NCBI GenBank assembly: GCA_030819375.1
Contig: GCA_030819375.1_4699.1
DNA length: 38,456 nucleotides
Source of the DNA: a phage
Reading direction: 5' to 3' (one strand)
In this document: piece by piece, positions 5,861-24,388 of the stretch
How positions within the stretch are numbered: position 1 is the first letter of the stretch
How the letters are laid out: every line of letters begins with the position of its first letter
Made by a program: the position numbers and the translations under genes
The notes under the pieces: generated by a model
The model's database searches: none
The model's input: only the letters and a program-made list of their open reading frames with translations
Told to the model about the DNA's origin: nothing

Positions 5861-5868
5861 TATTAATA

Positions 5869-5899
5869 GGCCATTCCTTCGGGAGTGGCCTTTTCTTTT
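5869..5899 (+). terminator. Intrinsic terminator after the RNAP gene
   Basis: 9-bp GC-rich stem ggccattcc/ggagtggcc with UUCG tetraloop, followed by TTTTCTTTT. Confidence 0.8.
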
Positions 5900-6284: not shown

Positions 6285-8273
6285 ATGGCTATTATTCAGA
6301 ATGTACCGTGTCCTGCTTGCCAAAAGAACGGACATGATATTACTGGCAATCATTTAATGATCTTTGACGACGGGGCAGGATACTGTAATCGTGGTCACTT
6401 CCATGATAACGGTAAACCTTATTACCACAAGCCGGAAGGTGGCATCGAGATAACCGAGTTACCTATTACTGGCAATATCAAATATACACCTTCTCAATTC
6501 AAAGAAATGGAGAAGGAAGGGAAGATAAGCGACCCTAAATTACGTGCCATCGCACTAGGTGGTATGCGTATGAAAGACCGTTGGGAGGTCATGAATGAGC
6601 AAGAAAGGGCAGACCAAGAAGCAGAGTGGAAACTTGATGTTGAATGGTTCCTCACGCTTAAGCGTAAGAACCTTGTTTCCCGACACATTCGCGGTGACAT
6701 TTGCGCATTGTATGATGTACGTGTCGGACACGATGAAGAGGGTAGAGTCACGCGGCATTACTATCCACGCTTCGAGCAAGGTGAGCTAGTAGGAGCTAAG
6801 TGTCGCACATTACCTAAAGACTTTAAGTTTGGTCATTTAGGTAAACTCTTTGGTATGCAAGATCTTTTCGGGATGAATACTTTGTCTCACGTGTTAGACA
6901 GGGGAAGACGAAAGGATTGCTTGCTTATTGTGGGTGGGGAACTGGATGCGCTAGCAGCGCAGCAGATGCTCCTTGATTCTGCCAAGGGTACTAAGTGGGA
7001 AGGTCAACCTTACCATGTATGGTCTGTTAACAAAGGGGAGTCTTGCCTTGAAGAGATTGTACAGAACCGTGAACACATCGCCCAATTCAAGAAGATTATT
7101 TGGGGCTTCGATGGGGATGAGGTAGGGCAGAAGCAGAATCAGCAAGCGGCTCGCCTGTTTCCTGGTAAATCCTATATCCTTGAATACCCCTCTGGTTGCA
7201 AAGATGCTAACAAGGCATTGATGGCTGGCAAGGCTAAAGAATTTGTAGATGCATGGTTTAATGCCAAGTCATCTGATGAAGTCTTTGGTAGCCAGATTAA
7301 ATCTATCGCATCTCAAAGGGATAAGCTCAAGGCTGCACGTCCAGAGCAAGGGTTATCATGGCCTTGGCCTAAGCTGAACAAGGTAACGCTAGGTATTCGT
7401 AAGAACCAGCTTATCATTGTAGGTGCAGGCTCTGGTGTAGGTAAGACTGAGTTCCTTCGCGAAGTGGTTAAGCACCTCATTGAAGAACACGGTGAATCTG
7501 TAGGCATCATTTCTACAGAAGACCCAATGGTCAAGGTGTCCCGTGCTTTTATCGGCAAGTGGATTGATAAGCGTATTGAGTTACCGCCAACCAACGATCC
7601 GAAAGAAGACGGATACCGTGAGGTGTTCGACTACACCGAGGAAGAAGCTAACGCTGCCATTGATTATGTGGCTGATACAGGGAAGCTGTTTGTAGCTGAC
7701 CTAGAGGGTGACTATTCTATGGAGAAGGTAGAGCAAACTTGCCTAGAGTTTGAGGCTATGGGCATTTCTAATATCATCATTGATAACTTAACGGGGATTA
7801 AATTAGATGAGCGTGCTTTTGGTGGGAAGGTTGGTGCACTTGATGAATGCGTCAAGCGGATTGGTACTATCAAAGACAGACATGCAGTTACTATATTCCT
7901 TGTATCACACCTTACACGTCCTCCGGCAAACCGTACCCAACACGAAGAAGGTGGCGAGGTTATCCTTTCTGACTTCCGAGGCTCAGGGGCTATCGGATTC
8001 TGGGCATCTTACGCCTTGGGGATTGAGCGTAACACAAGAGCTGAAACGCTTGATGAAAGAACTACCACGTACATCTCATGTGTCAAAGACCGCGACCAAG
8101 GTATCTACACCGGAACCAAGATCATGCTTAAGGGTGACATTCAAACCGGACGTTTGAGAGAACCTCAAGCCCGTACTAGGTCATTTGACACAGGCGAAGC
8201 AAGGCAACAAGAAGTGCCTGATTTACCGGACACTATAGAAGAGACTAACTTCGATGAAGAAAGTGAGTTTTGA
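6285..8273 (+). CDS. DNA primase/helicase (T7 gp4-like), 662 aa
   Basis: N-terminal Cys4 zinc ribbon (CPACQ...CNRGH), Walker A GAGSGVGKT, acidic C-terminus ending ...FDEESEF. Confidence 0.95.
   Translation: MAIIQNVPCPACQKNGHDITGNHLMIFDDGAGYCNRGHFHDNGKPYYHKPEGGIEITELPITGNIKYTPSQFKEMEKEGKISDPKLRAIALGGMRMKDRWEVMNEQERADQEAEWKLDVEWFLTLKRKNLVSRHIRGDICALYDVRVGHDEEGRVTRHYYPRFEQGELVGAKCRTLPKDFKFGHLGKLFGMQDLFGMNTLSHVLDRGRRKDCLLIVGGELDALAAQQMLLDSAKGTKWEGQPYHVWSVNKGESCLEEIVQNREHIAQFKKIIWGFDGDEVGQKQNQQAARLFPGKSYILEYPSGCKDANKALMAGKAKEFVDAWFNAKSSDEVFGSQIKSIASQRDKLKAARPEQGLSWPWPKLNKVTLGIRKNQLIIVGAGSGVGKTEFLREVVKHLIEEHGESVGIISTEDPMVKVSRAFIGKWIDKRIELPPTNDPKEDGYREVFDYTEEEANAAIDYVADTGKLFVADLEGDYSMEKVEQTCLEFEAMGISNIIIDNLTGIKLDERAFGGKVGALDECVKRIGTIKDRHAVTIFLVSHLTRPPANRTQHEEGGEVILSDFRGSGAIGFWASYALGIERNTRAETLDERTTTYISCVKDRDQGIYTGTKIMLKGDIQTGRLREPQARTRSFDTGEARQQEVPDLPDTIEETNFDEESEF
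8221..8243 (+). promoter_or_regulatory. Phage promoter embedded in the 3' end of the primase/helicase gene
   Basis: ATTTACCGGACACTATAGAAGAG; +1 G at 8238; encodes DLPDTIEE in frame. Confidence 0.65.
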
Positions 8274-9596: not shown

Positions 9597-10035
9597 CTAC
9601 ATCCTCTACTCTGATGGTCGAGTTCTTAACGAGAAAACAGGGCAATACCTAAGAGGTTACTTAGATAAGGATGGGTATCATATTATGAATATTAAAGGGA
9701 AACACCTTAAAGTTCATAGATTAGTTGCTACTCATTTCATACCTAACCCTAATAATTTACCTGAAGTTAACCATAAAGATCATGACCGTCTAAATAATAA
9801 TGATTGGAATCTAGAGTGGTGTACTCATCAAGATAACAACAAGCATAGTTTGCATTTAGTGATAGCTTCTTGTGCTAAACGCTATGACTTTATATCACCA
9901 CAGGGCGTCCATGTAGAAGTCTATAACCTACGTGAATTTTGTAGGAATAATAACCTACAACAATCTCATATGGTTAAGGTAGCTAAAGGTAAAGTAAGAC
10001 ATCATAAAGGTTGGACTAATTATGCTAGATGTTGA
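9556..10035 (+). CDS. HNH homing endonuclease (159 aa)
   Basis: KVHRLVATHFIPNP...EVNHKDHDRLNNNDWNLEWCTHQDN motif; GGAGGGAGG RBS; sits directly upstream of and overlapping the DNA polymerase start. Confidence 0.85.
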   Translation: MSSKQIKCTRIFTNYILYSDGRVLNEKTGQYLRGYLDKDGYHIMNIKGKHLKVHRLVATHFIPNPNNLPEVNHKDHDRLNNNDWNLEWCTHQDNNKHSLHLVIASCAKRYDFISPQGVHVEVYNLREFCRNNNLQQSHMVKVAKGKVRHHKGWTNYARC

Positions 10036-12568
10036 TTGGAAAGAATTTGGAAAGAATCGCATACTTGTCATGGATGCTGAAAGTAAAGGTCTGCTTGATG
10101 CTATTCGCTATGGTCATCGCGAAGACGTGCACATCATTTGCTGCATGGACTTGCTCACTACCGAGGAGTTCCTATTCTTCGACCCATATGAGATGCGTGA
10201 CCCTGAGGCAAGGGAACGCCTGAAGGAGTGGGAAGGCCATCAAGACGGAACCTTGGTTGATGGTGTTAACTTCCTGAAGCATTGTGAAGCTATTGTGTCA
10301 CAGAACTTCCTAGGATATGACGGTCTTCTCTTTGAGAAAGCATTCCCTGATATTTGGAAAGGCTTTAACTATACCGAGAAGCGCGGTAAGGGCAGACTCC
10401 GTGCTGACCTGTGTCCGGTGCGAGTCATGGATACGCTGGTGATGAGTCGCCTGTTAAACCCCGATAGACGCCTTCCTCCGCAAGCATATGCCAAAGGTAT
10501 GGGTAACGTCGCCCCTCACTCAATTGAGGCGCACGGCATCCGTATAGGTCGCTATAAACCGGAGAACGAGGACTGGTCTAAACTAACTGACCACATGGTT
10601 CACCGTGTACGTGAGGACGTGGCGATTGGTCGTGACTTGTTCCTCTGGCTCTTTAACGGGGAATGGATGGAGCACAAACGCCGTGGCGTGAATAAACGCA
10701 CGGGCCTAGGCATTGAGACAGCCTTCCACATGGAGTCCATTGTGGCGCTGGAGATGAGCCGTCAGGCCGAGCGCGGGTTCCGTCTGGACATCGACAAGGC
10801 TTTGGCCCGATGCGAAGAATTGGACGCTAAGATTGATGAGACAGTCGCAGCGTTCCGCCCTCACATGCCTATGCGTATCAAGTCTAAACCTTTTAAACCG
10901 GAAGAAAAGAATGAAGTATGCCAACGCGCAAATGAGTATGGAGCTAGCAACAATATACCTACTGTCCTTGACCCCTCACACTTTCTTCATGCCGAGAGAC
11001 GAGGAGATCGCAAGACAGTATGGAGTGTCACTACTAAGTCTGGTGATTGGTCGGCTAGTGTCAAGAAAGACTTTCCTCACCTTAGAGGAAACCGTAATGA
11101 CACGCCAAGCATCAAGTGGATTGGCGCTTACTCGCCTGTTACTTTCGAAGAGATTCCCTTGGGTAACAGGGATACAGTTAAGCAAGTGCTCTATGATTAT
11201 GGATGGAAAGGTGCTGAATTTAACGATACCGAGCAAGCGCATCTCGATGAGTACGGAGTGTTACCCAAACCTTGGAGTGGTAAGATAAATGAAAAGTCCC
11301 TTACTTTATGGCAAGAAAGAGCCGCACGTGAAGGTAAAACAGTCCCTGATTGGTGCTTGGGTATCGCTGCATGGTACATACTCGTATCCCGTCGTGGTCA
11401 GATACTCAACCGTGGTGACGTTGAAGCCTTCAACGAGAAGGGAACGTGGCCCTCGCAGGCTGGTGTACGAAAGTGTCGCGGCCTTGTACCTGTAGCATTC
11501 AACAAGGAGCTAGGAATCAATGCGCAGCAATACTACGAGAGGTACGGATGTTGGCCTACGTCTGACAAAGATGACGGAGAGTGGCGTGTTCCAGCTGTTG
11601 CTATTAGCATTGGCACTTCTACGTTCCGTATGCGTCATCGTAACGTGGTCAATATTCCTGCCCGTGGCTTGTATCCTTTACGTGATTTATTCATAGCAGG
11701 GAAAGGCAAGCTAATCCTTGGTTGTGACGGTGCAGGTCTTGAACTGCGTGTCCTGTCTCACTTCATGAATGACCCTGAGTACCAAGAGATTGTACTGCAC
11801 GGTGATATTCATACGCATAACCAGATGAAGGCTGGTCTTCCTAAGCGTGATATGGCGAAGACGTTTATATACGCCTTCCTCTATGGCTCTGGTATAGCCA
11901 ACCTTGCAGCAGTATGTGGTGTTACTGAGGAAGAAATGAAGGAAGTTGTGGCAAGATTCGAGATTGAACTGCCGTCTCTTGCACGTCTTCGTGAGAATGT
12001 TATCGCACAAGGTAACAAGTTTGGCTACCTGCAAGCACCTGATGGGCATTGGGGTCGCATCCGCATGTCTGGTGGTGAACTTAAAGAGCACACGATGCTT
12101 AACGTATTACTCCAGATGACTGGCTCTTTGTGTATGAAATATGCATTAGTCAAGGCATTTGCAGTAATGCGCAAGGAAGGTGTAGCCTTGGACGCTATGG
12201 GAAATCCTTGTGGTGTGGCTAACGTGCATGATGAAATCCAGATGGAAGTTCCTGAAGAGGAGGTCTTGTATCTTAACTACGACCTACCTTTCACCTTAGA
12301 TGGGTTCGAAACAGAGAAGGCTGCCGTGCAAGCAGTGTTCGATGCAGAGGAGAAACGTGTTCATGTGGATTCTGAAGGACGTATGTGGTCTGCTGCAAAC
12401 CTCGTTAGTGTTGATGCTGATGCTGGTGTATTGCATTGCCAGCGCCGTTATCACCGTGCAGGTCATATCATTGCCGACGCCATGACTTGGGCAGGGCAGT
12501 ATCTGAAGATGCGTTGCCCGATGGCAGGCGAATATAAGATTGGCGCAAGTTGGAAGGAAACACACTGA
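10022..12568 (+). CDS. DNA polymerase, family A (T7 gp5-like), 848 aa
   Basis: Exo I motif ILVMDAE, motif B KTFIYAFLYGSG, motif C VHDEIQ; size close to what I recall for SP6-type polymerases. Confidence 0.95.
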   Translation: MLDVDWKEFGKNRILVMDAESKGLLDAIRYGHREDVHIICCMDLLTTEEFLFFDPYEMRDPEARERLKEWEGHQDGTLVDGVNFLKHCEAIVSQNFLGYDGLLFEKAFPDIWKGFNYTEKRGKGRLRADLCPVRVMDTLVMSRLLNPDRRLPPQAYAKGMGNVAPHSIEAHGIRIGRYKPENEDWSKLTDHMVHRVREDVAIGRDLFLWLFNGEWMEHKRRGVNKRTGLGIETAFHMESIVALEMSRQAERGFRLDIDKALARCEELDAKIDETVAAFRPHMPMRIKSKPFKPEEKNEVCQRANEYGASNNIPTVLDPSHFLHAERRGDRKTVWSVTTKSGDWSASVKKDFPHLRGNRNDTPSIKWIGAYSPVTFEEIPLGNRDTVKQVLYDYGWKGAEFNDTEQAHLDEYGVLPKPWSGKINEKSLTLWQERAAREGKTVPDWCLGIAAWYILVSRRGQILNRGDVEAFNEKGTWPSQAGVRKCRGLVPVAFNKELGINAQQYYERYGCWPTSDKDDGEWRVPAVAISIGTSTFRMRHRNVVNIPARGLYPLRDLFIAGKGKLILGCDGAGLELRVLSHFMNDPEYQEIVLHGDIHTHNQMKAGLPKRDMAKTFIYAFLYGSGIANLAAVCGVTEEEMKEVVARFEIELPSLARLRENVIAQGNKFGYLQAPDGHWGRIRMSGGELKEHTMLNVLLQMTGSLCMKYALVKAFAVMRKEGVALDAMGNPCGVANVHDEIQMEVPEEEVLYLNYDLPFTLDGFETEKAAVQAVFDAEEKRVHVDSEGRMWSAANLVSVDADAGVLHCQRRYHRAGHIIADAMTWAGQYLKMRCPMAGEYKIGASWKETH

Positions 12569-13187: not shown

Positions 13188-13565
13188 ATGTCTATGGTAA
13201 CTACTCTGGTATTCGTAGCTCAATACTTTCGTGGTCTTGCTAATAAGTTCAAGTCCAAGGCTATCAAAGCTATTGAGTCTCGCATCGAGGCAGTACAGGC
13301 AGAGCAAGTTAAAGTTGAAGAACATCGCAGCTCTCAAATGATTGACTGCCATAACCGCCACTATTCATCTCGTGATGACCTTAATGCACGCCAAGTCAAA
13401 GAGGTTGAAGAGATGCTGGCACGTCACCAGCAAGAGCGCGACAGCCTGAAAGCTGAATTTGAAGAGAACAAGGCATCCATCGCCCTTGTACATCAAGCCG
13501 CATCTGACAGCCTGAAGAAAGAGATTGTTATGCTGGAAATTGAGTTAGACAACCTGACCAAATAA
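13188..13565 (+). CDS. Hypothetical protein (125 aa) with short hydrophobic N-terminus and predicted coiled coil
   Basis: AGGAGA RBS; heptad-like charged repeats; no embedded lipoprotein ORF found in the other frames. Confidence 0.65.
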   Translation: MSMVTTLVFVAQYFRGLANKFKSKAIKAIESRIEAVQAEQVKVEEHRSSQMIDCHNRHYSSRDDLNARQVKEVEEMLARHQQERDSLKAEFEENKASIALVHQAASDSLKKEIVMLEIELDNLTK

Positions 13566-13642: not shown

Positions 13643-14449
13643 ATGGCACGTGGTGATTTTGATTTTGGTGCTCAGGTTACTAAAGCTGAAGGTAAGGTTT
13701 TTAAGAACCCTGAAGTTGGTGATCATGAAGCAGTAATCTCTGGCATCATTCATGTGGGTTCCTTCCAAGATATCTTTAAGAAAGGTAATACCACTGAAGT
13801 TAAGAAGCCAGCAAACTTTGTTCTTGTTAAGATTGTACTGATGGGTGACGATGACAAGAACGAAGATGATTCTCGCATGGAACAGTGGATGGCTGTGCCT
13901 CTGAAGTCTGGTGACAAGGCAACCTTGACTAAGTTCCTGAATGCAGTTGACCCTAAAGAGCTGCTTGGTGGTTTCGATGACTTCATTGGTGAATGCCTGA
14001 CTGCAACTATGGTTGGCTCTGGCGACAAGAAGGATGATGGTACTTTCAAGTATGTTAACTGGAAAGGCTTTGGCGGTATGCCTGATAAGTTGAAGAAGCT
14101 TGTAATGGCTCAGGTAGAAGAGGAAGGTCTGTCTATGACAGGTCATATCACCTTCGACAAGCTGACCAAAGAAATCCTTGATGACATTCCTGCTAACTTG
14201 GTACGTCAATACTTCCTGAACGAGACACCTCGTGGTAAGAACCTGTCTGTTGCTGGCTCTCACGTAGAAGCTATTATCAAAGCTGCTCGTGAAGAAGACC
14301 CTGAATGGAAGAAGGCTAAGAAGAAAGACGAGGAAGATGCTACTCCAGCTAATCGTAAGTCTCTGGATACTGGCGAGTCTGTTCCACAGGAAGTACCTGA
14401 AGCAGAAGATACTCCTGCACCGGAGATGGATGAGGACGCGGAATATTAA
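13643..14449 (+). CDS. Putative ssDNA-binding protein (gp2.5-like), 268 aa; function inferred
   Basis: Strong RBS (AGGAGA) directly after a promoter; size and acidic C-terminal tail ending in an aromatic residue (...PEMDEDAEY) resemble T7 gp2.5. Confidence 0.45.
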   Translation: MARGDFDFGAQVTKAEGKVFKNPEVGDHEAVISGIIHVGSFQDIFKKGNTTEVKKPANFVLVKIVLMGDDDKNEDDSRMEQWMAVPLKSGDKATLTKFLNAVDPKELLGGFDDFIGECLTATMVGSGDKKDDGTFKYVNWKGFGGMPDKLKKLVMAQVEEEGLSMTGHITFDKLTKEILDDIPANLVRQYFLNETPRGKNLSVAGSHVEAIIKAAREEDPEWKKAKKKDEEDATPANRKSLDTGESVPQEVPEAEDTPAPEMDEDAEY

Positions 14450-14458
14450 GGAGAAAGG

Positions 14459-14677
14459 GTGAAAGTACAAATCGTAACCCTGCACTGCAAGAAGGGTATC
14501 ACAACGCTCGGAGGTGGCACTTTCCACTCTTTCTCCGAAGGGGAGATTTATGCTGACCTGCACTACATCTGGCGCGACGGACAGCACGTGGTGAACTACA
14601 GCGACCCAGCTACGGGGAAACGCCACGGCGTATCGCTTCCGGCGCATGACATTGCTCAGGTGAACACAGTTTTATAA
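14459..14677 (+). CDS. Hypothetical protein (72 aa), GTG start
   Basis: AGGAG 5 nt upstream of GTG 14459; ORF track. Confidence 0.55.
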   Translation: MKVQIVTLHCKKGITTLGGGTFHSFSEGEIYADLHYIWRDGQHVVNYSDPATGKRHGVSLPAHDIAQVNTVL

Positions 14678-14678
14678 A

Positions 14679-14694
14679 GTCTCACGTGTGAGAC
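14679..14694. repeat. GTCTCACGTGTGAGAC hairpin element (copy 5)
   Basis: 6-bp stem with 4-nt loop directly after the stop codon at 14677 and 15 bp upstream of the promoter at 14710. Confidence 0.7.
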
Positions 14695-14709
14695 AAATCG
14701 GTGTCCGGT

Positions 14710-14732
14710 ATTTACTGGACACTATAGAAGAG
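14710..14732 (+). promoter_or_regulatory. Phage-RNAP promoter (ATTTACTGGACACTATAGAAGAG)
   Basis: Perfect consensus; +1 G at 14727. Confidence 0.85.
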
Positions 14733-14782
14733 AAGAATTTTAATCGGCGATAATGCCATAACCAACAAAAGGCGAATTTAAT

Positions 14783-15154
14783 ATGTTCAAGATTGAAACT
14801 ATCGTAAACCGTGTTGTTAAAGGTGCTGCTCTGGTATCCGTTGAGTCTTTCATTATCGTCGATGAAGATGATCAACTGGTAGCTGGTACTAAGGCTTACG
14901 ATACCCGTGAAGAAGCTCAGGCTAAGATTGACAGCATGGGTAACTTCGCTGCTGGTCTGGAGTTCGCTCGTGCTTGCTTCCCTGAGCAGGCTGACAAAGC
15001 TCAGATTGGTAAGGCTAATATCGTAGCTGAATATCTGGATTGGGTTGCTGCTGGTAAACCAATGAAAGAAATTAAGGCTGCTGAAGAAGCTGAAGCTCCA
15101 GCAGAAGAAGTAGCTGCACCGGAAACTCCGGTAAGCGAAGAGGAAGAATTTTGA
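14783..15154 (+). CDS. Acidic hypothetical protein (123 aa) ending ...SEEEEF; gene sits between a promoter and a terminator
   Basis: Promoter 14710 upstream, terminator 15213 downstream; acidic C-terminal tail ending in Phe. Confidence 0.8.
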   Translation: MFKIETIVNRVVKGAALVSVESFIIVDEDDQLVAGTKAYDTREEAQAKIDSMGNFAAGLEFARACFPEQADKAQIGKANIVAEYLDWVAAGKPMKEIKAAEEAEAPAEEVAAPETPVSEEEEF

Positions 15155-15212
15155 TAATAGCAGGTGTTGCCTCTGTTAGTCCTAGCTGACTATCACGCTC
15201 ACCTCATCTAAT

Positions 15213-15246
15213 GCCCTGTCTGCCTTAGTGTAGGCAGGGTCTTTTG
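15213..15246 (+). terminator. Intrinsic terminator (paralog of the post-capsid terminator)
   Basis: gccctgtctgccttagtgtaggcagggtcttttg: GC-rich hairpin then TCTTTTG; near-identical architecture at 24342. Confidence 0.7.
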
Positions 15247-15271
15247 CGTAATAGTTATTGGAGAGTGAATT

Positions 15272-15556
15272 ATGCCGACTATTGAAGAACGTTTCCTGAT
15301 TCACGTAAGCTTCTCTCCCATACATCTTGGTTATCTTATCACTATTCTATTAGGTGAAGAGATTTATCTGCATAACTACTTAATACCAGAGTATGTATGC
15401 CGTCGAGATAAGATACACCCTGCTAATTGGGCGAAGGAGTGGTTGCGTGAACATGTGCTGAAGGAGTGGCCTACATGCGACCAAACTTCGACTTCGGAGC
15501 TACAGTATCGGAAGACAATAATCTCATCCTGTGGCCAACTGAAGGTAATCGAATAG
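15272..15556 (+). CDS. Hypothetical protein (94 aa), overlaps the exonuclease start
   Basis: GGAGAG RBS; ORF track. Confidence 0.4.
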   Translation: MPTIEERFLIHVSFSPIHLGYLITILLGEEIYLHNYLIPEYVCRRDKIHPANWAKEWLREHVLKEWPTCDQTSTSELQYRKTIISSCGQLKVIE

Positions 15557-16898: not shown

Positions 16899-17898
16899 GC
16901 TTCGCAGCTTGTACAAAGACTCCGAGGTACTTGATGCAATCGAGCAAGCTACCGACGAGAAAGGTAATGTTAATTACAATGAGATGGCACGTGTATTATC
17001 GTGTCACCCTGTGGGTAAGAAGATTACCCGCCAGTTGGCTCGATACTGGCATGGTCAATTCAAGAAGACCAAGAAGAATGGTGATTATTACCAGACCCTT
17101 CTGCAAGAAGATAAGCGTATCAAAGAAGAGCGTAAGCTCAGGACTCCTGACCGCTACGAGGATTTGGCTATTGTGCCATTGCCTGACTCGCCTCATCGAA
17201 GTGTACTGGTGATCCCTGATACTCATGCACCTTATGAGCACCCAGATACCCTAGAGTTCCTTGCAGCCGTGGCAGCACGTTACCGTCCAGACACAGTGGT
17301 ACACCTAGGAGATGAGGCAGACAAACATGCCTTGTCATTCCACGATTCGGACCCAAATCTGGATAGTGCTGGCATGGAGTTAGAGAAGGCTCGTATCTTC
17401 ATGCACAAATTGCACAAGATGTTCCCTGTGATGCGCCTGTGTCACTCCAACCACGGCTCTATGCACTTCCGTAAGGCAAGCGCCAAGGGCATCCCTGTGC
17501 AATACCTGCGCACCTACCGTGAAGTTTTCTTCCCGCAGGGAGGTGGCGACCAGTGGGATTGGCAGCATACGCACGTCCTTGAGTTGCCGAATGGTGAACA
17601 AGTGGCATTCAAGCATCAACCTGCTGGCTCTGTCCTAGCAGATGCAGCGCATGAGCGTATGAACCTAGTGTGTGGTCACTTGCACGGTAAGATGTCTGTG
17701 GAGTACGCACGTAATACACATGAACAGTATTGGGCTGTGCAAGGTGGCTGCTTAATTGATGAGTCATCCCGTGCATTTGCCTATGGTCGTGAGTCTAAAT
17801 ACAAGCCAGCATTAGGTTGTGTGGTCATTCTGGAGGGTGTGCCTCACATTGTCCCGATGCAAACCAATAGCGACAACCGTTGGATTGGCAAGATTTAG
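16891..17898 (+). CDS. Calcineurin-like metallophosphoesterase (start uncertain: TTG 16891 preferred over ATG 16867 or track start 16759)
   Basis: Motifs VIPDTHAPY, LGDEADKH, CGHLHG; AGGAGG 6 nt upstream of TTG 16891, which overlaps the endo VII stop. Confidence 0.75.
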   Translation: MGKLRSLYKDSEVLDAIEQATDEKGNVNYNEMARVLSCHPVGKKITRQLARYWHGQFKKTKKNGDYYQTLLQEDKRIKEERKLRTPDRYEDLAIVPLPDSPHRSVLVIPDTHAPYEHPDTLEFLAAVAARYRPDTVVHLGDEADKHALSFHDSDPNLDSAGMELEKARIFMHKLHKMFPVMRLCHSNHGSMHFRKASAKGIPVQYLRTYREVFFPQGGGDQWDWQHTHVLELPNGEQVAFKHQPAGSVLADAAHERMNLVCGHLHGKMSVEYARNTHEQYWAVQGGCLIDESSRAFAYGRESKYKPALGCVVILEGVPHIVPMQTNSDNRWIGKI

Positions 17899-18504: not shown

Positions 18505-18672
18505 ATGGAAGTTAAATTGTACAGAGGTTACTTTGGCAACTTGTACAAAGTAAGTCGCAAGGGTTCTATATTAACATCCAATGATGAAGGTGCAACTTTA
18601 AGTGCCTATGGTTCTGACTTAGCGTACTTTAAAGAGGCAATAGTCAAAGGTGTGATGAAGGAGGTGAAATGA
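18505..18672 (+). CDS. Hypothetical protein (55 aa)
   Basis: ATG 18505 immediately follows the upstream stop, GAGGA RBS; track start 18487 is TTG. Confidence 0.5.
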   Translation: MEVKLYRGYFGNLYKVSRKGSILTSNDEGATLSAYGSDLAYFKEAIVKGVMKEVK

Positions 18673-19616
18673 ACATCTTCCAATTCCTAGGCCTTCCAGA
18701 AGATCACCGCAATCACCCATTCATGTTGGTGAAACATCGCGGTGAAGTTCCTGAGAAGAAATTAACCTTTCCATGTTATGCACAGGTGAAACGAGATGGA
18801 ATATTCAGTGCTGTTGTGGTGCGTAATGATGGTGTTGTTGCCATCTTTGGTCGTACTGGTAAGAAGCTCGCAAATGTTGAAGCCTTGGAGAAGGCATTTA
18901 GTGTATTTCCTGTCGGGTTGTATCTTGGTGAGTTGCAATCTATGGCTGTTGATGTTTATCTTGAAGCTCTATCAGGAGTGGTAAACCCTAATCGTACCGA
19001 GCCACTTGATTTCATAGGCCAGCAGATTAAAGACAACCTGTATATCGACTTCTTCGATATGTTAACCATTAAGGCATTCCATGATGGATTCACTGATGTT
19101 TCTTATCTCAAACGTTACGATGCTTTACATCGTCGCATCGGCGCTCATCTTAGCGGGTACAACGCTATCCTTCCTATTACTCCTTGCCATAATGAGCGAG
19201 AGGTTGAAGCGTTTGCACAAGCGCAAATAGATGCAGGCCGAGAGGGTGCTGTGTTTAAACTGGACTGTGATTATGAAGCAGGCCACAAAGGTTATCGTCA
19301 GACTAAAGAAGTCCGTAAGGTAACTTATGACCTTACTTGTATTGGCTTTGAAGAAGGCAAAGGCAAGTACAAAGGTAAGGTAGCTAACCTCATTTTCAAA
19401 TGGAAAGGAGGCAAGACAATCAAAGCTATGCTCGGTAAAGGGTGGACTCATGCAGATGCAGAACAGATGTTCCACGATATCAAACATGGTGGACGATTGA
19501 ATGTCATTGGTAAAATCTTTGAAGTCAAAGGTCTTCAGGATTCAAGCAAGGGCAACATTCGTCTGCCCAAAGCGGGAGAATTAAGACATGACAAAGATGA
19601 ACCAGATTTCTTTTGA
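18669..19616 (+). CDS. ATP-dependent DNA ligase (315 aa)
   Basis: Adenylation motif KRDG (YAQVKRDGIF); GAAGGAGG RBS. Confidence 0.9.
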   Translation: MNIFQFLGLPEDHRNHPFMLVKHRGEVPEKKLTFPCYAQVKRDGIFSAVVVRNDGVVAIFGRTGKKLANVEALEKAFSVFPVGLYLGELQSMAVDVYLEALSGVVNPNRTEPLDFIGQQIKDNLYIDFFDMLTIKAFHDGFTDVSYLKRYDALHRRIGAHLSGYNAILPITPCHNEREVEAFAQAQIDAGREGAVFKLDCDYEAGHKGYRQTKEVRKVTYDLTCIGFEEGKGKYKGKVANLIFKWKGGKTIKAMLGKGWTHADAEQMFHDIKHGGRLNVIGKIFEVKGLQDSSKGNIRLPKAGELRHDKDEPDFF

Positions 19617-19803
19617 TTCCATGAAGGCAACTCGTGCAGTTGAGGTGGCAGAGGCTATCTTTGAAACTCTATCCTGTGGCATGGAAGTGCCATATACTTT
19701 ACTTGCTGATGCAGAAGAACTTGGTCTTTCTGTAGAAGCTATCCAAGAGAAGGTTGACGAATTATATGGTACAGACGAAGAAGAAACCTACGATTTCATT
19801 TGA
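19588..19803 (+). CDS. Hypothetical acidic protein (71 aa)
   Basis: ORF track; GGGAGA RBS; overlaps the ligase 3' end. Confidence 0.5.
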   Translation: MTKMNQISFDSMKATRAVEVAEAIFETLSCGMEVPYTLLADAEELGLSVEAIQEKVDELYGTDEEETYDFI

Positions 19804-20616: not shown

Positions 20617-22164
20617 ATGCAAGACACCGACCTTGAGTATGGTGGTAAGCGGTCGAAGATACCTAAGCTCTGGGAGAAGCTATCTACTAAGCGTAACCCT
20701 TTCATAGACAGGGCAAAGCACTATGCTAGGTTGACTTTGCCTTATCTCATGAATGAGGAGGGAGACAACAATACCTCTCAGAATGGGTGGCAAGGTGTAG
20801 GTGCTCAGGCCACTAACCACTTGGCTAACAAGTTAGCGCAAGTTCTCTTCCCGGCTCAACGCTCTTTCTTCCGAGTAGACTTGACAGCAAAAGGGGAGAA
20901 GATATTAAACAACAGAGGTCTTAAGAAGACCAAATTAGCTACGCTGTTTGCTCAAGTAGAGACTGCTGCTATGAAGCAATTAGAGCAGCGGCAGTTCCGC
21001 CCAGCGGTGGTGGAGTGCTTCAAGCATTTGATTGTTGCTGGCAACTGTATGTTGTACAAGCCAAGCAAAGGTGCAATCAGTGCTATACCTATGCATCACT
21101 ATGTAGTGAACAGGGACGCCAATGGTGAACTACTGGACATTATCTTACTACAAGAGAAGGCACTCAAGACATTTGACAACGCAACTCGCATGGCTATTAA
21201 AGTAGGCATGAAAGGTAAGAAGTGTAAGGACAGTGATAATGTAAAACTCTACACACACGCCAAGTATGAGGGTGAAGGTTTTTGGGAATTAAAGCAATCA
21301 GCAGATGATATTCCTATTGGTGAATCTAGCAGAATCAAGGCTGATAAACTCCCATTCATCCCTCTTACTTGGAAGAGGTCGTATGGGGAAGACTGGGGTC
21401 GCCCTCTTGCAGAGGATTATTCTGGGGATTTATTCGTAATCCAATTCCTGTCCGAAGCAGTTGCACGTGGCGCTGCTTTGATGTCCGACATTAAATACCT
21501 GATTCGTCCAGGTGCTCAGACAGATGTAGACCATTTTGTTAACTCGGGAACGGGTGAAGTAATCACTGGCGTGGAAGAGGACATCCATATTGTACAATTA
21601 GGGAAGTATGCAGATCTAACACCAATAAGTGCGGTGCTAGAAGTTTATACCCGCCGTATCGGCGTAGTCTTTATGATGGAAACCATGACGCGACGAGATG
21701 CAGAACGTGTAACTGCTGTAGAGATACAGCGAGATGCTCTTGAGATTGAGCAGAACATGGGTGGCGTGTATTCCCTCTTTGCTAAGACCATGCAGACTCC
21801 CGTGGCTATGTGGGGTTTGCTTGATGCAGGTGACTCTTTCACTAGTGACCTAGTAGACCCTGTTATCATCACAGGCATTGAAGCGTTAGGTCGCATGGCA
21901 GAGTTGGATAAGCTGGCTAACTTTGCTCAGTATATGGCATTACCTATGAGTTGGCCTGAGCCGGTACAGGCAGCAGTAAACTGGCCGGATTATATGGATT
22001 GGGTTCGTGGTCAGATCTCTGCTGAACTTCCATTCTTAAAGTCAGAAGAGCAGATGAAGCAAGAACAAGCACAGATGGCACAAGCACAGCAAGAGCAGAT
22101 GCTTAATGAAGGAGTAGCTAAAGCTGTGCCGGGTGTCATTCAACAAGAACTTAAGGAGGCGTAA
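20617..22164 (+). CDS. Portal (head-tail connector) protein, 515 aa
   Basis: Size and position before scaffold and capsid; AGGAG RBS. Confidence 0.9.
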   Translation: MQDTDLEYGGKRSKIPKLWEKLSTKRNPFIDRAKHYARLTLPYLMNEEGDNNTSQNGWQGVGAQATNHLANKLAQVLFPAQRSFFRVDLTAKGEKILNNRGLKKTKLATLFAQVETAAMKQLEQRQFRPAVVECFKHLIVAGNCMLYKPSKGAISAIPMHHYVVNRDANGELLDIILLQEKALKTFDNATRMAIKVGMKGKKCKDSDNVKLYTHAKYEGEGFWELKQSADDIPIGESSRIKADKLPFIPLTWKRSYGEDWGRPLAEDYSGDLFVIQFLSEAVARGAALMSDIKYLIRPGAQTDVDHFVNSGTGEVITGVEEDIHIVQLGKYADLTPISAVLEVYTRRIGVVFMMETMTRRDAERVTAVEIQRDALEIEQNMGGVYSLFAKTMQTPVAMWGLLDAGDSFTSDLVDPVIITGIEALGRMAELDKLANFAQYMALPMSWPEPVQAAVNWPDYMDWVRGQISAELPFLKSEEQMKQEQAQMAQAQQEQMLNEGVAKAVPGVIQQELKEA

Positions 22165-23063
22165 TGTCTTTTGAAATTATTAATGAACCTGTAAGTCAGT
22201 CTGACGTTACTGAATCTAAGGAGGCTGCTGATGTTACTACTACCGACAACGATTCTACTGTTGATTCTTCTGGCAGCGATGTACAAGCTGACACAGGCAG
22301 TACAGATGTACAAGACACCAGAGGAGAAGATGCTGGAGAAGATGGAGCAGGAGCAGAGGCTGGTGGACAGGATGATAAATCTGAGCCAAATGACACCACA
22401 GATGCGCGGTTCTTCTTCGGTGAACAAGAAGTAGAGATTGAGATTCCTGATGACGTGTCAACTGCCTTGAAAGAGAAAGGTATTGATGCTATGCAGGTTG
22501 CCAAGGAGTTGTATGGCGAAGGTGGTAAATTTGAACTCAAGGAAGAGACAAAGCAGAAGTTGTATGATGCTTTTGGTAAGTTTGCTGTAGACGCCTACCT
22601 GAATGGCCTTAAGGCCTCCAACGAAGCATTCATGCTCAAAGCTGAGACTCAAGCAAAAGAGGCGGAGGCTGCTGATGCTCAGCGCTTCACTGATATTGCA
22701 TCTGAGGTTGGAGGGGAAGAAGGTTGGTCACGCCTTGAAGAGTGGGCGCTTGAAACCCTCTCGGATGAGGAGCTAACCGCGTTTAATGCTGTTATGGCCT
22801 CTGGCAACCAGTACCTGCAACAATATGCTGTTCGTGAACTGGAAGGTCGCCGTAAGCAAGCGCAAGGGGACGATAAGCCGTCTATGATTGAGCCATCAGC
22901 ACCTGCTAAGGCTAATGAGGATAACGGGCCATTAACTCGCGATCAGTATGTACATGCCATTGCAACTCTGAGCCAGAAGTATGGTAATGACCGTAAGGCT
23001 ATGGCAGAAGCTCAGGCGAAACTGGATGCCCGTCGCCGTGCTGGCATGGCTCGCGGTATCTAA
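22164..23063 (+). CDS. Capsid assembly scaffolding protein, 299 aa
   Basis: Highly acidic, coiled-coil-rich protein between portal and capsid; AAGGAGG RBS. Confidence 0.85.
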   Translation: MSFEIINEPVSQSDVTESKEAADVTTTDNDSTVDSSGSDVQADTGSTDVQDTRGEDAGEDGAGAEAGGQDDKSEPNDTTDARFFFGEQEVEIEIPDDVSTALKEKGIDAMQVAKELYGEGGKFELKEETKQKLYDAFGKFAVDAYLNGLKASNEAFMLKAETQAKEAEAADAQRFTDIASEVGGEEGWSRLEEWALETLSDEELTAFNAVMASGNQYLQQYAVRELEGRRKQAQGDDKPSMIEPSAPAKANEDNGPLTRDQYVHAIATLSQKYGNDRKAMAEAQAKLDARRRAGMARGI

Positions 23064-23069
23064 TTCAGT

Positions 23070-23092
23070 ATTTACTGGACACTATAGAAGGG
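23070..23092 (+). promoter_or_regulatory. Phage-RNAP promoter upstream of the capsid gene
   Basis: ATTTACTGGACACTATAGAAGGG; +1 G at 23087. Confidence 0.85.
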
Positions 23093-23142
23093 AGAAAAGT
23101 TCTCCCTAGTTATCAATTTGATTTATAAGGAGATTATAACAC

Positions 23143-24333
23143 ATGTCTACACCGAATACTCTGACTAACGTTGCTGTATCTGCATCCGGTGAGGTTGACA
23201 GTCTTCTCATTGAGAAGTTTAATGGTAAGGTGAATGAGCAGTACCTGAAAGGTGAGAACATTCTGTCTTACTTTGATGTACAAACTGTTACTGGCACTAA
23301 CACAGTGAGCAACAAATATTTGGGCGAAACTGAGTTGCAGGTGCTAGCACCGGGTCAGTCTCCTAATGCCACCGCTACTCAGGCGGATAAAAACCAGTTG
23401 GTAATTGATACCACTGTCATTGCTCGTAACACTGTGGCTCACATCCACGATGTACAAGGTGACATCGATAGCCTGAAACCAAAACTGGCTATGAACCAAG
23501 CCAAGCAACTGAAACGTCTGGAAGACCAGATGGCAATTCAGCAGATGCTGTTAGGCGGTATTGCTAACACCAAGGCCAAACGTGGCAAGCCGCGTGTTAA
23601 AGGGCATGGCTTCTCTATCAACGTTAACGTAACTGAGAGTGAAGCACTGGCTAACCCTCAGTATGTTATGGCTGCGGTAGAGTATGCTCTGGAGCAACAG
23701 CTTGAGCAGGAAGTGGACATCTCTGATGTAGCTATCATGATGCCGTGGAAGTTCTTCAATGCTCTGCGTGATGCAGACCGAATTGTAGATAAGACTTACA
23801 CTATCAGCCAGTCTGGTGCAACCATTAATGGCTTCGTTCTCTCTTCTTATAACTGCCCTGTGATCCCGTCTAACCGGTTCCCTGCCTTCGCTCAGAGTCA
23901 GGCTCACCACCTGTTGTCTAATGAAGATAACGGCTATCGTTATGACCCTATCGCAGAGATGAATGGTGCAGTTGCTGTTCTGTTCACTGCCGACGCACTG
24001 CTGGTGGGTCGTACCATTGAAGTGACTGGTGACATCTTCTATGAGAAGAAAGAGAAGACTTATTACATTGACACCTTCATGGCTGAGGGTGCAATCCCTG
24101 ACCGTTGGGAAGCAGTGTCTGTAGTCACTACTAAGCGTAATGAAGCTACTGGTGCCGCAGGAGGAGGAGGCACAGACCACGCCACTGTTCTGTCCCGTGC
24201 GCAGCGTAAGGCTGTATATGTCAAGACCGCAGGTGCTGCACCAGCAGGTATCCAAGCGGAAGACTTTGTAGCGGCGGTACGTGCTGTAATGGCAAATGGC
24301 ATCAAGTCGACTGCACTGAAATCTACTGAGTAA
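23143..24333 (+). CDS. Major capsid protein, 396 aa
   Basis: Promoter-gene-terminator unit, strong RBS (AAGGAGA), position after scaffold. Confidence 0.95.
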   Translation: MSTPNTLTNVAVSASGEVDSLLIEKFNGKVNEQYLKGENILSYFDVQTVTGTNTVSNKYLGETELQVLAPGQSPNATATQADKNQLVIDTTVIARNTVAHIHDVQGDIDSLKPKLAMNQAKQLKRLEDQMAIQQMLLGGIANTKAKRGKPRVKGHGFSINVNVTESEALANPQYVMAAVEYALEQQLEQEVDISDVAIMMPWKFFNALRDADRIVDKTYTISQSGATINGFVLSSYNCPVIPSNRFPAFAQSQAHHLLSNEDNGYRYDPIAEMNGAVAVLFTADALLVGRTIEVTGDIFYEKKEKTYYIDTFMAEGAIPDRWEAVSVVTTKRNEATGAAGGGGTDHATVLSRAQRKAVYVKTAGAAPAGIQAEDFVAAVRAVMANGIKSTALKSTE

Positions 24334-24341
24334 TAACCTAT

Positions 24342-24375
24342 GCCCTATCTACCTTGCGTAGGTAGGGTTCTTTTG
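24342..24375 (+). terminator. Intrinsic terminator after the capsid gene (T7 Tphi-like position)
   Basis: gccctatctaccttgcgtaggtagggttcttttg: hairpin then TTCTTTTG. Confidence 0.75.
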
Positions 24376-24388
24376 TTTAGGAGGATTC

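Follow-up and report, generated by a model that had tools for sequence, protein, structure and literature searches.

Gene 18 of K1-5-like phages: a conserved single-gene transcription unit encoding a small acidic protein with a candidate replisome-docking tail

Gene 18 and its neighborhood

The DNA studied here is a phage contig of 38,456 nucleotides (GCA_030819375.1_4699.1, from GenBank assembly GCA_030819375.1), referred to below in its full length as the window. Our subject is its gene 18 (positions 14783 to 15154; the gene, its promoter, leader, and terminator, the upstream palindrome, the capsid unit, gene 16, and the primase-helicase tail lie on the + strand), which encodes a 123-residue acidic protein (gene product 18, or gp18) and is flanked by a promoter and a terminator of its own. 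The reading that we favor, to which we assign a probability of roughly 45%, is that gp18 is an abundant accessory protein of the replisome or of recombination, with a C-terminal tail that would dock on the phage replication machinery.

In a sequence search, the region from 14600 to 15300 was 98 to 99% identical to Escherichia phages LL11 and K1-5 and matched 101 phage records, mostly from Vectrevirus and Zindervirus (Autographiviridae, Molineuxvirinae). With approximately 99% identity to K1-5 and LL11, the window is assigned to a K1-5-like Vectrevirus, i.e., a coliphage of the K1-5/SP6 type. Its gene 18 corresponds to gene 18 of K1-5 and to gp20 in the RefSeq record of SP6, and is annotated as a "hypothetical conserved protein" in LL11. 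The sole match of gp18 in PHROGs was phrog_4429, a family listed with function unknown. At the end of the gene (15152 to 15160), three different in-frame stop codons, TGA-TAA-TAG, stand in a row, and a second stop directly follows the first in several relatives.

For comparison, we used the corresponding loci of 12 divergent phages from two subfamilies (Molineuxvirinae and Colwellvirinae), whose hosts belong to Escherichia, Salmonella, Proteus, Pectobacterium, Erwinia, Klebsiella, Vibrio, Pseudomonas, Marinomonas, and Aeromonas. The same order was found at 10 of these 12 loci: a homologue of gp16 (approximately 260 residues), one or two small genes, the gp18 homologue, a 5'-3' exonuclease, and endonuclease VII. 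We regard gene 18, on the strength of this arrangement, as a syntenic core gene over two subfamilies and many host genera.

Promoter, leader, and upstream palindrome

A preliminary description of this DNA had placed a perfect-consensus promoter at 14710, and positions 14710 to 14732 do contain ATTTACTGGACACTATAGAAGAG without a single mismatch to the 23-nucleotide consensus. Seven sites in the window resemble this sequence with at most three mismatches, versus none expected by chance from shuffled sequences. When a position-weight matrix built from those seven sites was scanned over the window, 12 sites emerged (1769, 5954, 6139, 8221, 8912, 13101, 13564, 14710, 17893, 23070, 36307, and 38412), the best score, 38.3 bits, being that of 14710. 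A sigma-70 promoter was rejected, since the sigma-70 scan was empty at this position. Judged by its sequence, the site is an SP6/K1-5-type promoter of the phage RNA polymerase (RNAP), from which transcription of gene 18 presumably starts at G 14727, by analogy with the SP6 promoter. A TATAG promoter core is present upstream of the gp18 homologue in 9 of the 12 loci, and the record of Vibrio phage phiA318 annotates the promoter found there as phiA54. Elsewhere in the window, the sites at 17893 (ATTTAGTTGACACTATAG, 25.9 bits) and 1769 (ATTTAGCTGACACTATAAG, 20.7 bits) have bases like those of SP6 in the specificity region, where K1-5-type sites have ACTGG.

The leader that would follow (14727 to 14782) is 56 nucleotides long and contains a small GGC/GCC stem-loop and a Shine-Dalgarno sequence, AAGGCG (14769 to 14774). 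The 3-bp stem is kept in SP6 and in Proteus phage PM93, and in other relatives, a short stem with another sequence occupies much the same place.

Directly downstream of the gene 17 stop codon and 15 nucleotides upstream of the promoter lies a 16-nucleotide palindrome, GTCTCACGTGTGAGAC (14679 to 14694). The form GTCTCAC-NN-GTGAGAC occurs eight times in the window (318, 5936, 6118, 6884, 8295, 9439, 14679, and 31220), versus 0.1 copies expected, and seven of the eight copies are intergenic. A related palindrome precedes the same promoter in SP6, PM93, PP1, and phiA318, and the same palindrome is found upstream of the gp18 promoter in phiA318 and downstream of the capsid terminator in phiA318 and in Pseudomonas phage Alpheus. 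Possible roles are a 3' stem-loop formed by the upstream transcript, an RNA processing site, or a protein-binding site or operator. An Rfam scan of 14600 to 15300 yielded no family.

Terminator, read-through, and the parallel with the capsid gene

Downstream of gene 18, an 11-pair hairpin (15213 to 15240) followed by CTTTTG makes up an intrinsic terminator (15213 to 15246), in agreement with the strong terminator first described there. Its hairpin has a folding energy of -18.3 kcal/mol (z = -4.1), and none of 200 shuffled sequences was equally stable. A hairpin with a T-rich tail follows the gp18 homologue in all 12 loci (-16 to -27 kcal/mol). Their stem sequences differ, and a G+C-rich hairpin directly ahead of a U-run, kept as a structure while its sequence diverges, is expected of an intrinsic (class I) terminator of the kind used by T7-type RNAPs. 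The record of PM93 annotates a terminator in this place. The record and paper on phiA318 give three terminators, which do not include the clear hairpin and T-run after its gp18 homologue (approximately 15320 to 15355).

Apart from gene 18, only the major capsid gene has such a layout in the window, as the preliminary description had noted with coordinates that we could confirm. The capsid unit (23070 to 24376) consists of a promoter (23070 to 23092), a leader stem-loop (23090 to 23106), the gene itself (23143 to 24333), and a terminator (24342 to 24368 plus a T-run) with a hairpin of -16.4 kcal/mol. Since the only other strong terminator on the + strand of the window (5868 to 5891) follows the RNAP gene, no gene other than gene 18 and the capsid gene forms a single-gene promoter-terminator unit. 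The capsid leader has a stem of 7 bp, versus 3 bp for gene 18; this stem-loop, GGGAGAA-AAG-TTCTCCC, begins 3 nucleotides after the inferred start and recalls the T7 gene 10 leader.

The two terminators had been called near-identical paralogs, and neither part of that description held up. They are identical at 31 of 38 positions (82%), and one change between their stems, from G-C to A-T, is fully compensatory. SP6 has exactly the same two sequences as the window, and the two terminators of Ea100, phiA318, Alpheus, and PP1 all fit the same template, (A)TGCCC...GGGY-TTaTTTTG. We therefore rejected recent duplication, since a terminator consensus shared by the whole group fits better. For SP6 and UAB_Phi78, it has already been reported that this gene and the capsid gene are each followed by a terminator (PMC4837284). 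The promoter-terminator layout is thus real and conserved, and it is already described rather than new.

The weight-matrix scan found no phage promoter above 12 bits between 15246 and 17893, and because of this, genes 19 to 22, which include an exonuclease, endonuclease VII, and a phosphoesterase, need read-through of the terminator at 15213. The unit had been called insulated; a promoter and a terminator are indeed present, but the required read-through does not fit that word. For the same reason, read-through had wrongly been named as an observation that would speak against termination, as some is expected from the genome layout and would leave the finding intact. From this arrangement, we infer that the terminator is partial and acts as an attenuator ahead of genes 19 to 22, which would result in a high ratio of gp18 to the nucleases.

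The closest parallel in T7 is the unit of the highly expressed gene 10 (phi10, leader, and T-phi), which likewise combines a consensus phage promoter, a single gene, and a terminator made of a hairpin and a U-run. Termination at T-phi is incomplete, and the genes downstream of it are reached by read-through. Unlike the T7 unit, that of gene 18 lies in the DNA-metabolism region, and its leader stem is only 3 bp long. For the stretch of the T7 class II region that we examined, the record contains promoters and no terminator, and the region as a whole is not known to have one.

It could be argued that the cassette is mainly regulatory, with the terminator throttling potentially toxic nuclease genes 19 to 22 and gp18 being a dispensable accessory. 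As there is no promoter between 15246 and 17893, the terminator would set the dose of exonuclease and endonuclease VII, and its position is kept in 12 of 12 loci. However, this reading leaves unexplained the dedicated consensus promoter, the extreme codon optimization of gene 18, and the strong purifying selection on its product (five residues invariant in 114 sequences and a terminal F or Y in 225 of 244; see below), and we find it distinctly improbable. An attenuator role for the terminator is, in any case, compatible with the explanation that we prefer and with the other alternatives.

Codon usage and expression level

We calculated the codon adaptation index (CAI) of 30 genes with E. coli weights (the values of Sharp and Li). 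Gene 18 had the highest value of all (0.66), followed by gene 16 (0.52), while that of the capsid gene was 0.47. Alanine is encoded by GCT in 21 of 23 cases, versus 38% in the other genes (P = 1.4e-7), and the Gly, Arg, and Leu codons are all the preferred ones (GGT, CGT, and CTG). A second test took its weights from each phage's own capsid gene in six divergent genomes. Here, the gp18 homologue ranked first in four genomes, second in Alpheus, and third in PP1, and gp16 was within the top three in every ranking.

The very high expression claimed at the outset is thereby supported indirectly, by the top CAI, the capsid-weighted ranks, the conserved hairpin, and the promoter core or annotated promoter upstream at most loci. 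A search of the literature on K1-5 gp18, SP6 gp20, and transcriptomes of the group found no measurement of RNA, protein, or function.

Third in CAI was gene 15 (13188 to 13565; 125 residues), which has the look of a coiled-coil protein. RefSeq names the homologues in SP6 and PP1 "polysaccharide chain length determinant protein," a label that is probably spurious, as the underlying hit scores 20.8 bits, far below the family threshold of 279 bits.

A single-gene cassette resembling that of the capsid gene, with equal or higher codon adaptation, might suggest a morphogenetic helper made in capsid-like amounts, such as a chaperone, a scaffold-like protein, or a decoration protein, and GenBank record OR594181 does place capsid and scaffold annotations over this region. 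Those labels, though, apparently result from annotation shifted on a rotated sequence, and we did not accept them. Given that gene 18 sits among the DNA-metabolism genes, with those for portal, scaffold, and capsid 8 kb farther downstream, that the scaffolding gene is a separate one (22164 to 23063), and that gp18 matches phrog_4429 and no scaffold or capsid PHROGs, we consider a role in morphogenesis highly improbable.

The gp18 domain and its family

As initially described, gp18 is an acidic protein of 123 residues with a tail that ends in Phe. Its isoelectric point (pI) is 4.29, and it falls into two parts: residues 1 to 97 (14783 to 15073) form a folded domain with a net charge of -5, and residues 98 to 123 (15074 to 15151), with a net charge of -9 in all, form a disordered Ala/Pro/Glu linker and an acidic tip, EEEEF. 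The AlphaFold2 prediction from 114 sequences consists of one beta-hairpin and three helices, of which one is short and two are longer. Block means of the predicted local distance difference test (pLDDT) are approximately 79 to 90 over the first 90 residues, approximately 65 over residues 91 to 100, and below 50 over residues 98 to 120. In the 114 aligned family sequences, D27, A45, A62, K77, and A78 are invariant, and G30, K37, G58, L59, F61, A64, K72, N79, A82, L85, and F123 are nearly so.

The preliminary description had named no function for the protein, and our searches agreed with this. Pfam gave matches at chance level for gp18 and for the 114 family members, NCBIfam and PADLOC gave nothing for gp18, a sequence-profile search of the PDB gave nothing below an E value of 0.3, and a fold search gave no confident match. 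Searching 1.84 billion representative proteins with a hidden Markov model yielded 28 clusters (at 50% identity), all of them standalone proteins of 59 to 149 residues and none with a domain fusion. The family is restricted to phages and is absent from T7-like phages. Beta-beta-alpha domains of the UPF0339/DUF1508 type (YegP-like, PF07411) came out below a confident threshold, with none of the 114 family members matching in Pfam, and gp18 differs from them in having two extra helices and the acidic tail.

Two specific identities were not supported. A binding protein for single-stranded DNA (SSB) like T7 gp2.5 is an OB fold with a long alpha helix, which gp18 is not, and hhalign gave this pairing a probability of 0.4%. 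For an antirestriction DNA mimic of the Ocr or ArdA type, one would expect an early-region gene and a densely negative folded surface, but gene 18 belongs to the middle region, where a phage promoter serves it, and its folded domain has a net charge of only -5. A separate Ocr-like gene (1294 to 1662; pI of the product, 4.05), whose SP6 homologue is annotated as ocr-like, is present in the early region.

Could gp18 instead be an architectural protein that coats or orders phage DNA as it replicates or recombines? The phi29 proteins p6 and p5, which are replication-associated, absent from the virion, and approximately 100 to 125 residues long, are extremely abundant. An analogue of these, with an acidic tail that folds back on a cluster of lysines as an electrostatic gate (compare T7 gp2.5), would suit the codon-based signs of abundance, the replication and recombination neighborhood, the disordered linker and tail, and the conservation of K37, K72, K77, and N79, set in a protein that is acidic elsewhere. 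Foldseek also returned two weak matches, to podovirus proteins of approximately 120 to 130 residues annotated as "single stranded DNA binding protein," but these are at chance level (E value of 0.22). No DNA-binding fold is recognizable in gp18, the negative net charge of its domain does not favor coating, and gp16 already offers an OB-fold candidate for an SSB. We detected no sequence or fold relation between gp18 and p6 or p5, and phi29 replication, for its part, is protein primed. On balance, we doubt that gp18 coats DNA.

An acidic-aromatic tail shared by three proteins

The tail is the most telling part of gp18. Among 244 family members, F or Y is the final residue in 225, and 239 carry an aromatic residue in one of the three final positions. 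Net charge over the final 20 residues averages -7. Two other proteins of the phage carry the same kind of ending. One is gp16 (gene at 13643 to 14449), an OB-fold protein and probable SSB, which ends in ...DEDAEY and has a terminal F or Y in 81 of 84 family members; its profile gave a negative result against that of T7 gp2.5 and no meaningful match in the PDB. The other is the primase-helicase (gene at 6285 to 8273), with a C-terminal tail (8205 to 8270) that ends in ...TNFDEESEF. In six genomes, nearly every helicase, gp16, and gp18 closes with a run of acidic residues and then F or Y, located at the C terminus or close to it. The exceptions are tails poor in acidic residues, such as that of the Ea100 helicase (..TGASEF), and in Alpheus, gp16 (EFGE) and gp18 (SFEG) have two extra residues past the aromatic one.

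Such tails are familiar from T7, where gp4 ends in NDTDF and gp2.5 in DEDGDF, and the tail of gp2.5, with its terminal Phe, mediates binding to DNA polymerase and helicase (PMC12339929, PMC4124056). Like gp2.5 and gp4, gp18 has a disordered, strongly acidic tail with a Phe at its end (...SEEEEF); in both cases, the tail is common to more than one replication protein of one phage, and the genes belong to class II and have a promoter immediately ahead of them. In T7, the gp2.5 mutant that corresponds to loss of F123 is dominant lethal. Unlike gp2.5, the 97-residue domain of gp18 is not an OB fold and has no sequence or profile similarity to it. Another difference from T7 is that three proteins bear the tail here, possibly five if one counts the DNA ligase and a small open reading frame (ORF). 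The ligase (18669 to 19616) ends in ...DEPDFF and has an aromatic C-terminal end in five of six genomes, and the 71-residue ORF that follows it (19588 to 19803) ends in ...ETYDFI. An acidic-aromatic C terminus may, if these endings are a guide, mark a wider set of replisome clients.

A tail of this kind could also be turned against the host. By this reading, the tip (which looks like the C-terminal tip of the SSB from E. coli) or the domain of gp18 is a decoy or inhibitor that titrates an abundant host component and shuts down host DNA transactions, candidate targets being SSB-client proteins, a nucleoid protein (compare T7 gp5.5), and host RNAP (compare T7 gp2). Capsid-level codon optimization would suit titration of an abundant target, and gp18 is a small, acidic orphan without an enzyme motif. 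Its gene also resembles T7 gene 5.5 in small size and in its place between the genes for DNA polymerase and the 5'-3' exonuclease. The T7 protein binds H-NS and is reported to be highly abundant, and SP6-type phages are not known to have a homologue of T7 gp2 or gp5.5. However, gp5.5 has a pI of 7.9, lacks an acidic tail, and shows no similarity to gp18 in a profile comparison, and gp18 has no match in PADLOC. Genes for host takeover or antidefense are, in addition, usually variable and located in the early region, in contrast to a syntenic core gene found across many host genera, and the presence of the same tail on the phage's own helicase and OB-fold protein points to a docking site within the phage machinery. 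A host-directed role thus seems unlikely.

Proposed function of gp18

Because its tail is common to the helicase and gp16, and because of the parallel with T7, we place gp18 in the replication and recombination module as a probable client of a docking site. Under the reading that we favor, gene 18 would be a middle-class (DNA-metabolism) gene with a short mRNA of its own, made from the consensus promoter of the phage RNAP. Most transcripts would stop at the hairpin and U-run, and a read-through minority would supply the downstream nuclease genes. The product would be a very abundant, nonvirion protein in which the flexible Ala/Pro/Glu linker joins the small globular domain, with its conserved Lys, Asn, and Asp residues (D27, K37, K72, K77, and N79), to the acidic, Phe-ended tip. 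This tip would dock on the same basic site of the replisome, most likely on DNA polymerase (10022 to 12568), as the tails of the primase-helicase and gp16, in the way that the gp4 and gp2.5 tails dock on T7 DNA polymerase. The domain would stoichiometrically bind a partner protein or nucleic acid as replication and recombination proceed.

Several points weigh against this proposal. The domain of gp18 is itself mildly acidic (net charge of -5), and the profile comparison with T7 gp2.5 was negative (probability of 0.4%). An acidic-aromatic C terminus is a short motif that could have other partners, host proteins included. Docking on a low-copy polymerase does not call for expression at the level of the capsid, so that the role of the domain must explain the abundance. 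Finally, the Shine-Dalgarno sequence of gene 18 is weakened in this genome, reading AAGGCG with a C at 14773. It is AAGGAG in K1-5, in LL11, and in seven IMG/VR contigs, none of which has the C variant; the C may reflect a genuine mutation or an error in sequencing.

A bolder version of the proposal, which we rate as rather improbable, is that gp18 is an unrecognized core component of the SP6-type replisome, with a new fold, and the third or a further client of one docking site on the polymerase, where its high concentration would let it compete with the tails of the helicase and SSB. If so, that competition would set how the replisome behaves, for instance in its processivity, in displacing strands, or in the switch from replication to recombination and packaging.

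Implications for SP6-type phages

Phages of the SP6/K1-5 type are the source of a standard laboratory RNAP and are of therapeutic and capsule-targeting use, and their replication machinery has hardly been studied past its homology to T7. Should gp18 prove dispensable, the finding would shrink to an already annotated terminator and an uncharacterized accessory gene. The unit of promoter, leader, gene, and terminator is a compact and naturally tuned high-output expression cassette for SP6-type polymerases. The most codon-optimized gene of these genomes is a conserved orphan with the hallmark of a replisome-docking tail, and, if that tail docks on the polymerase, these phages would have a multiclient tail-hub system richer than that of T7.
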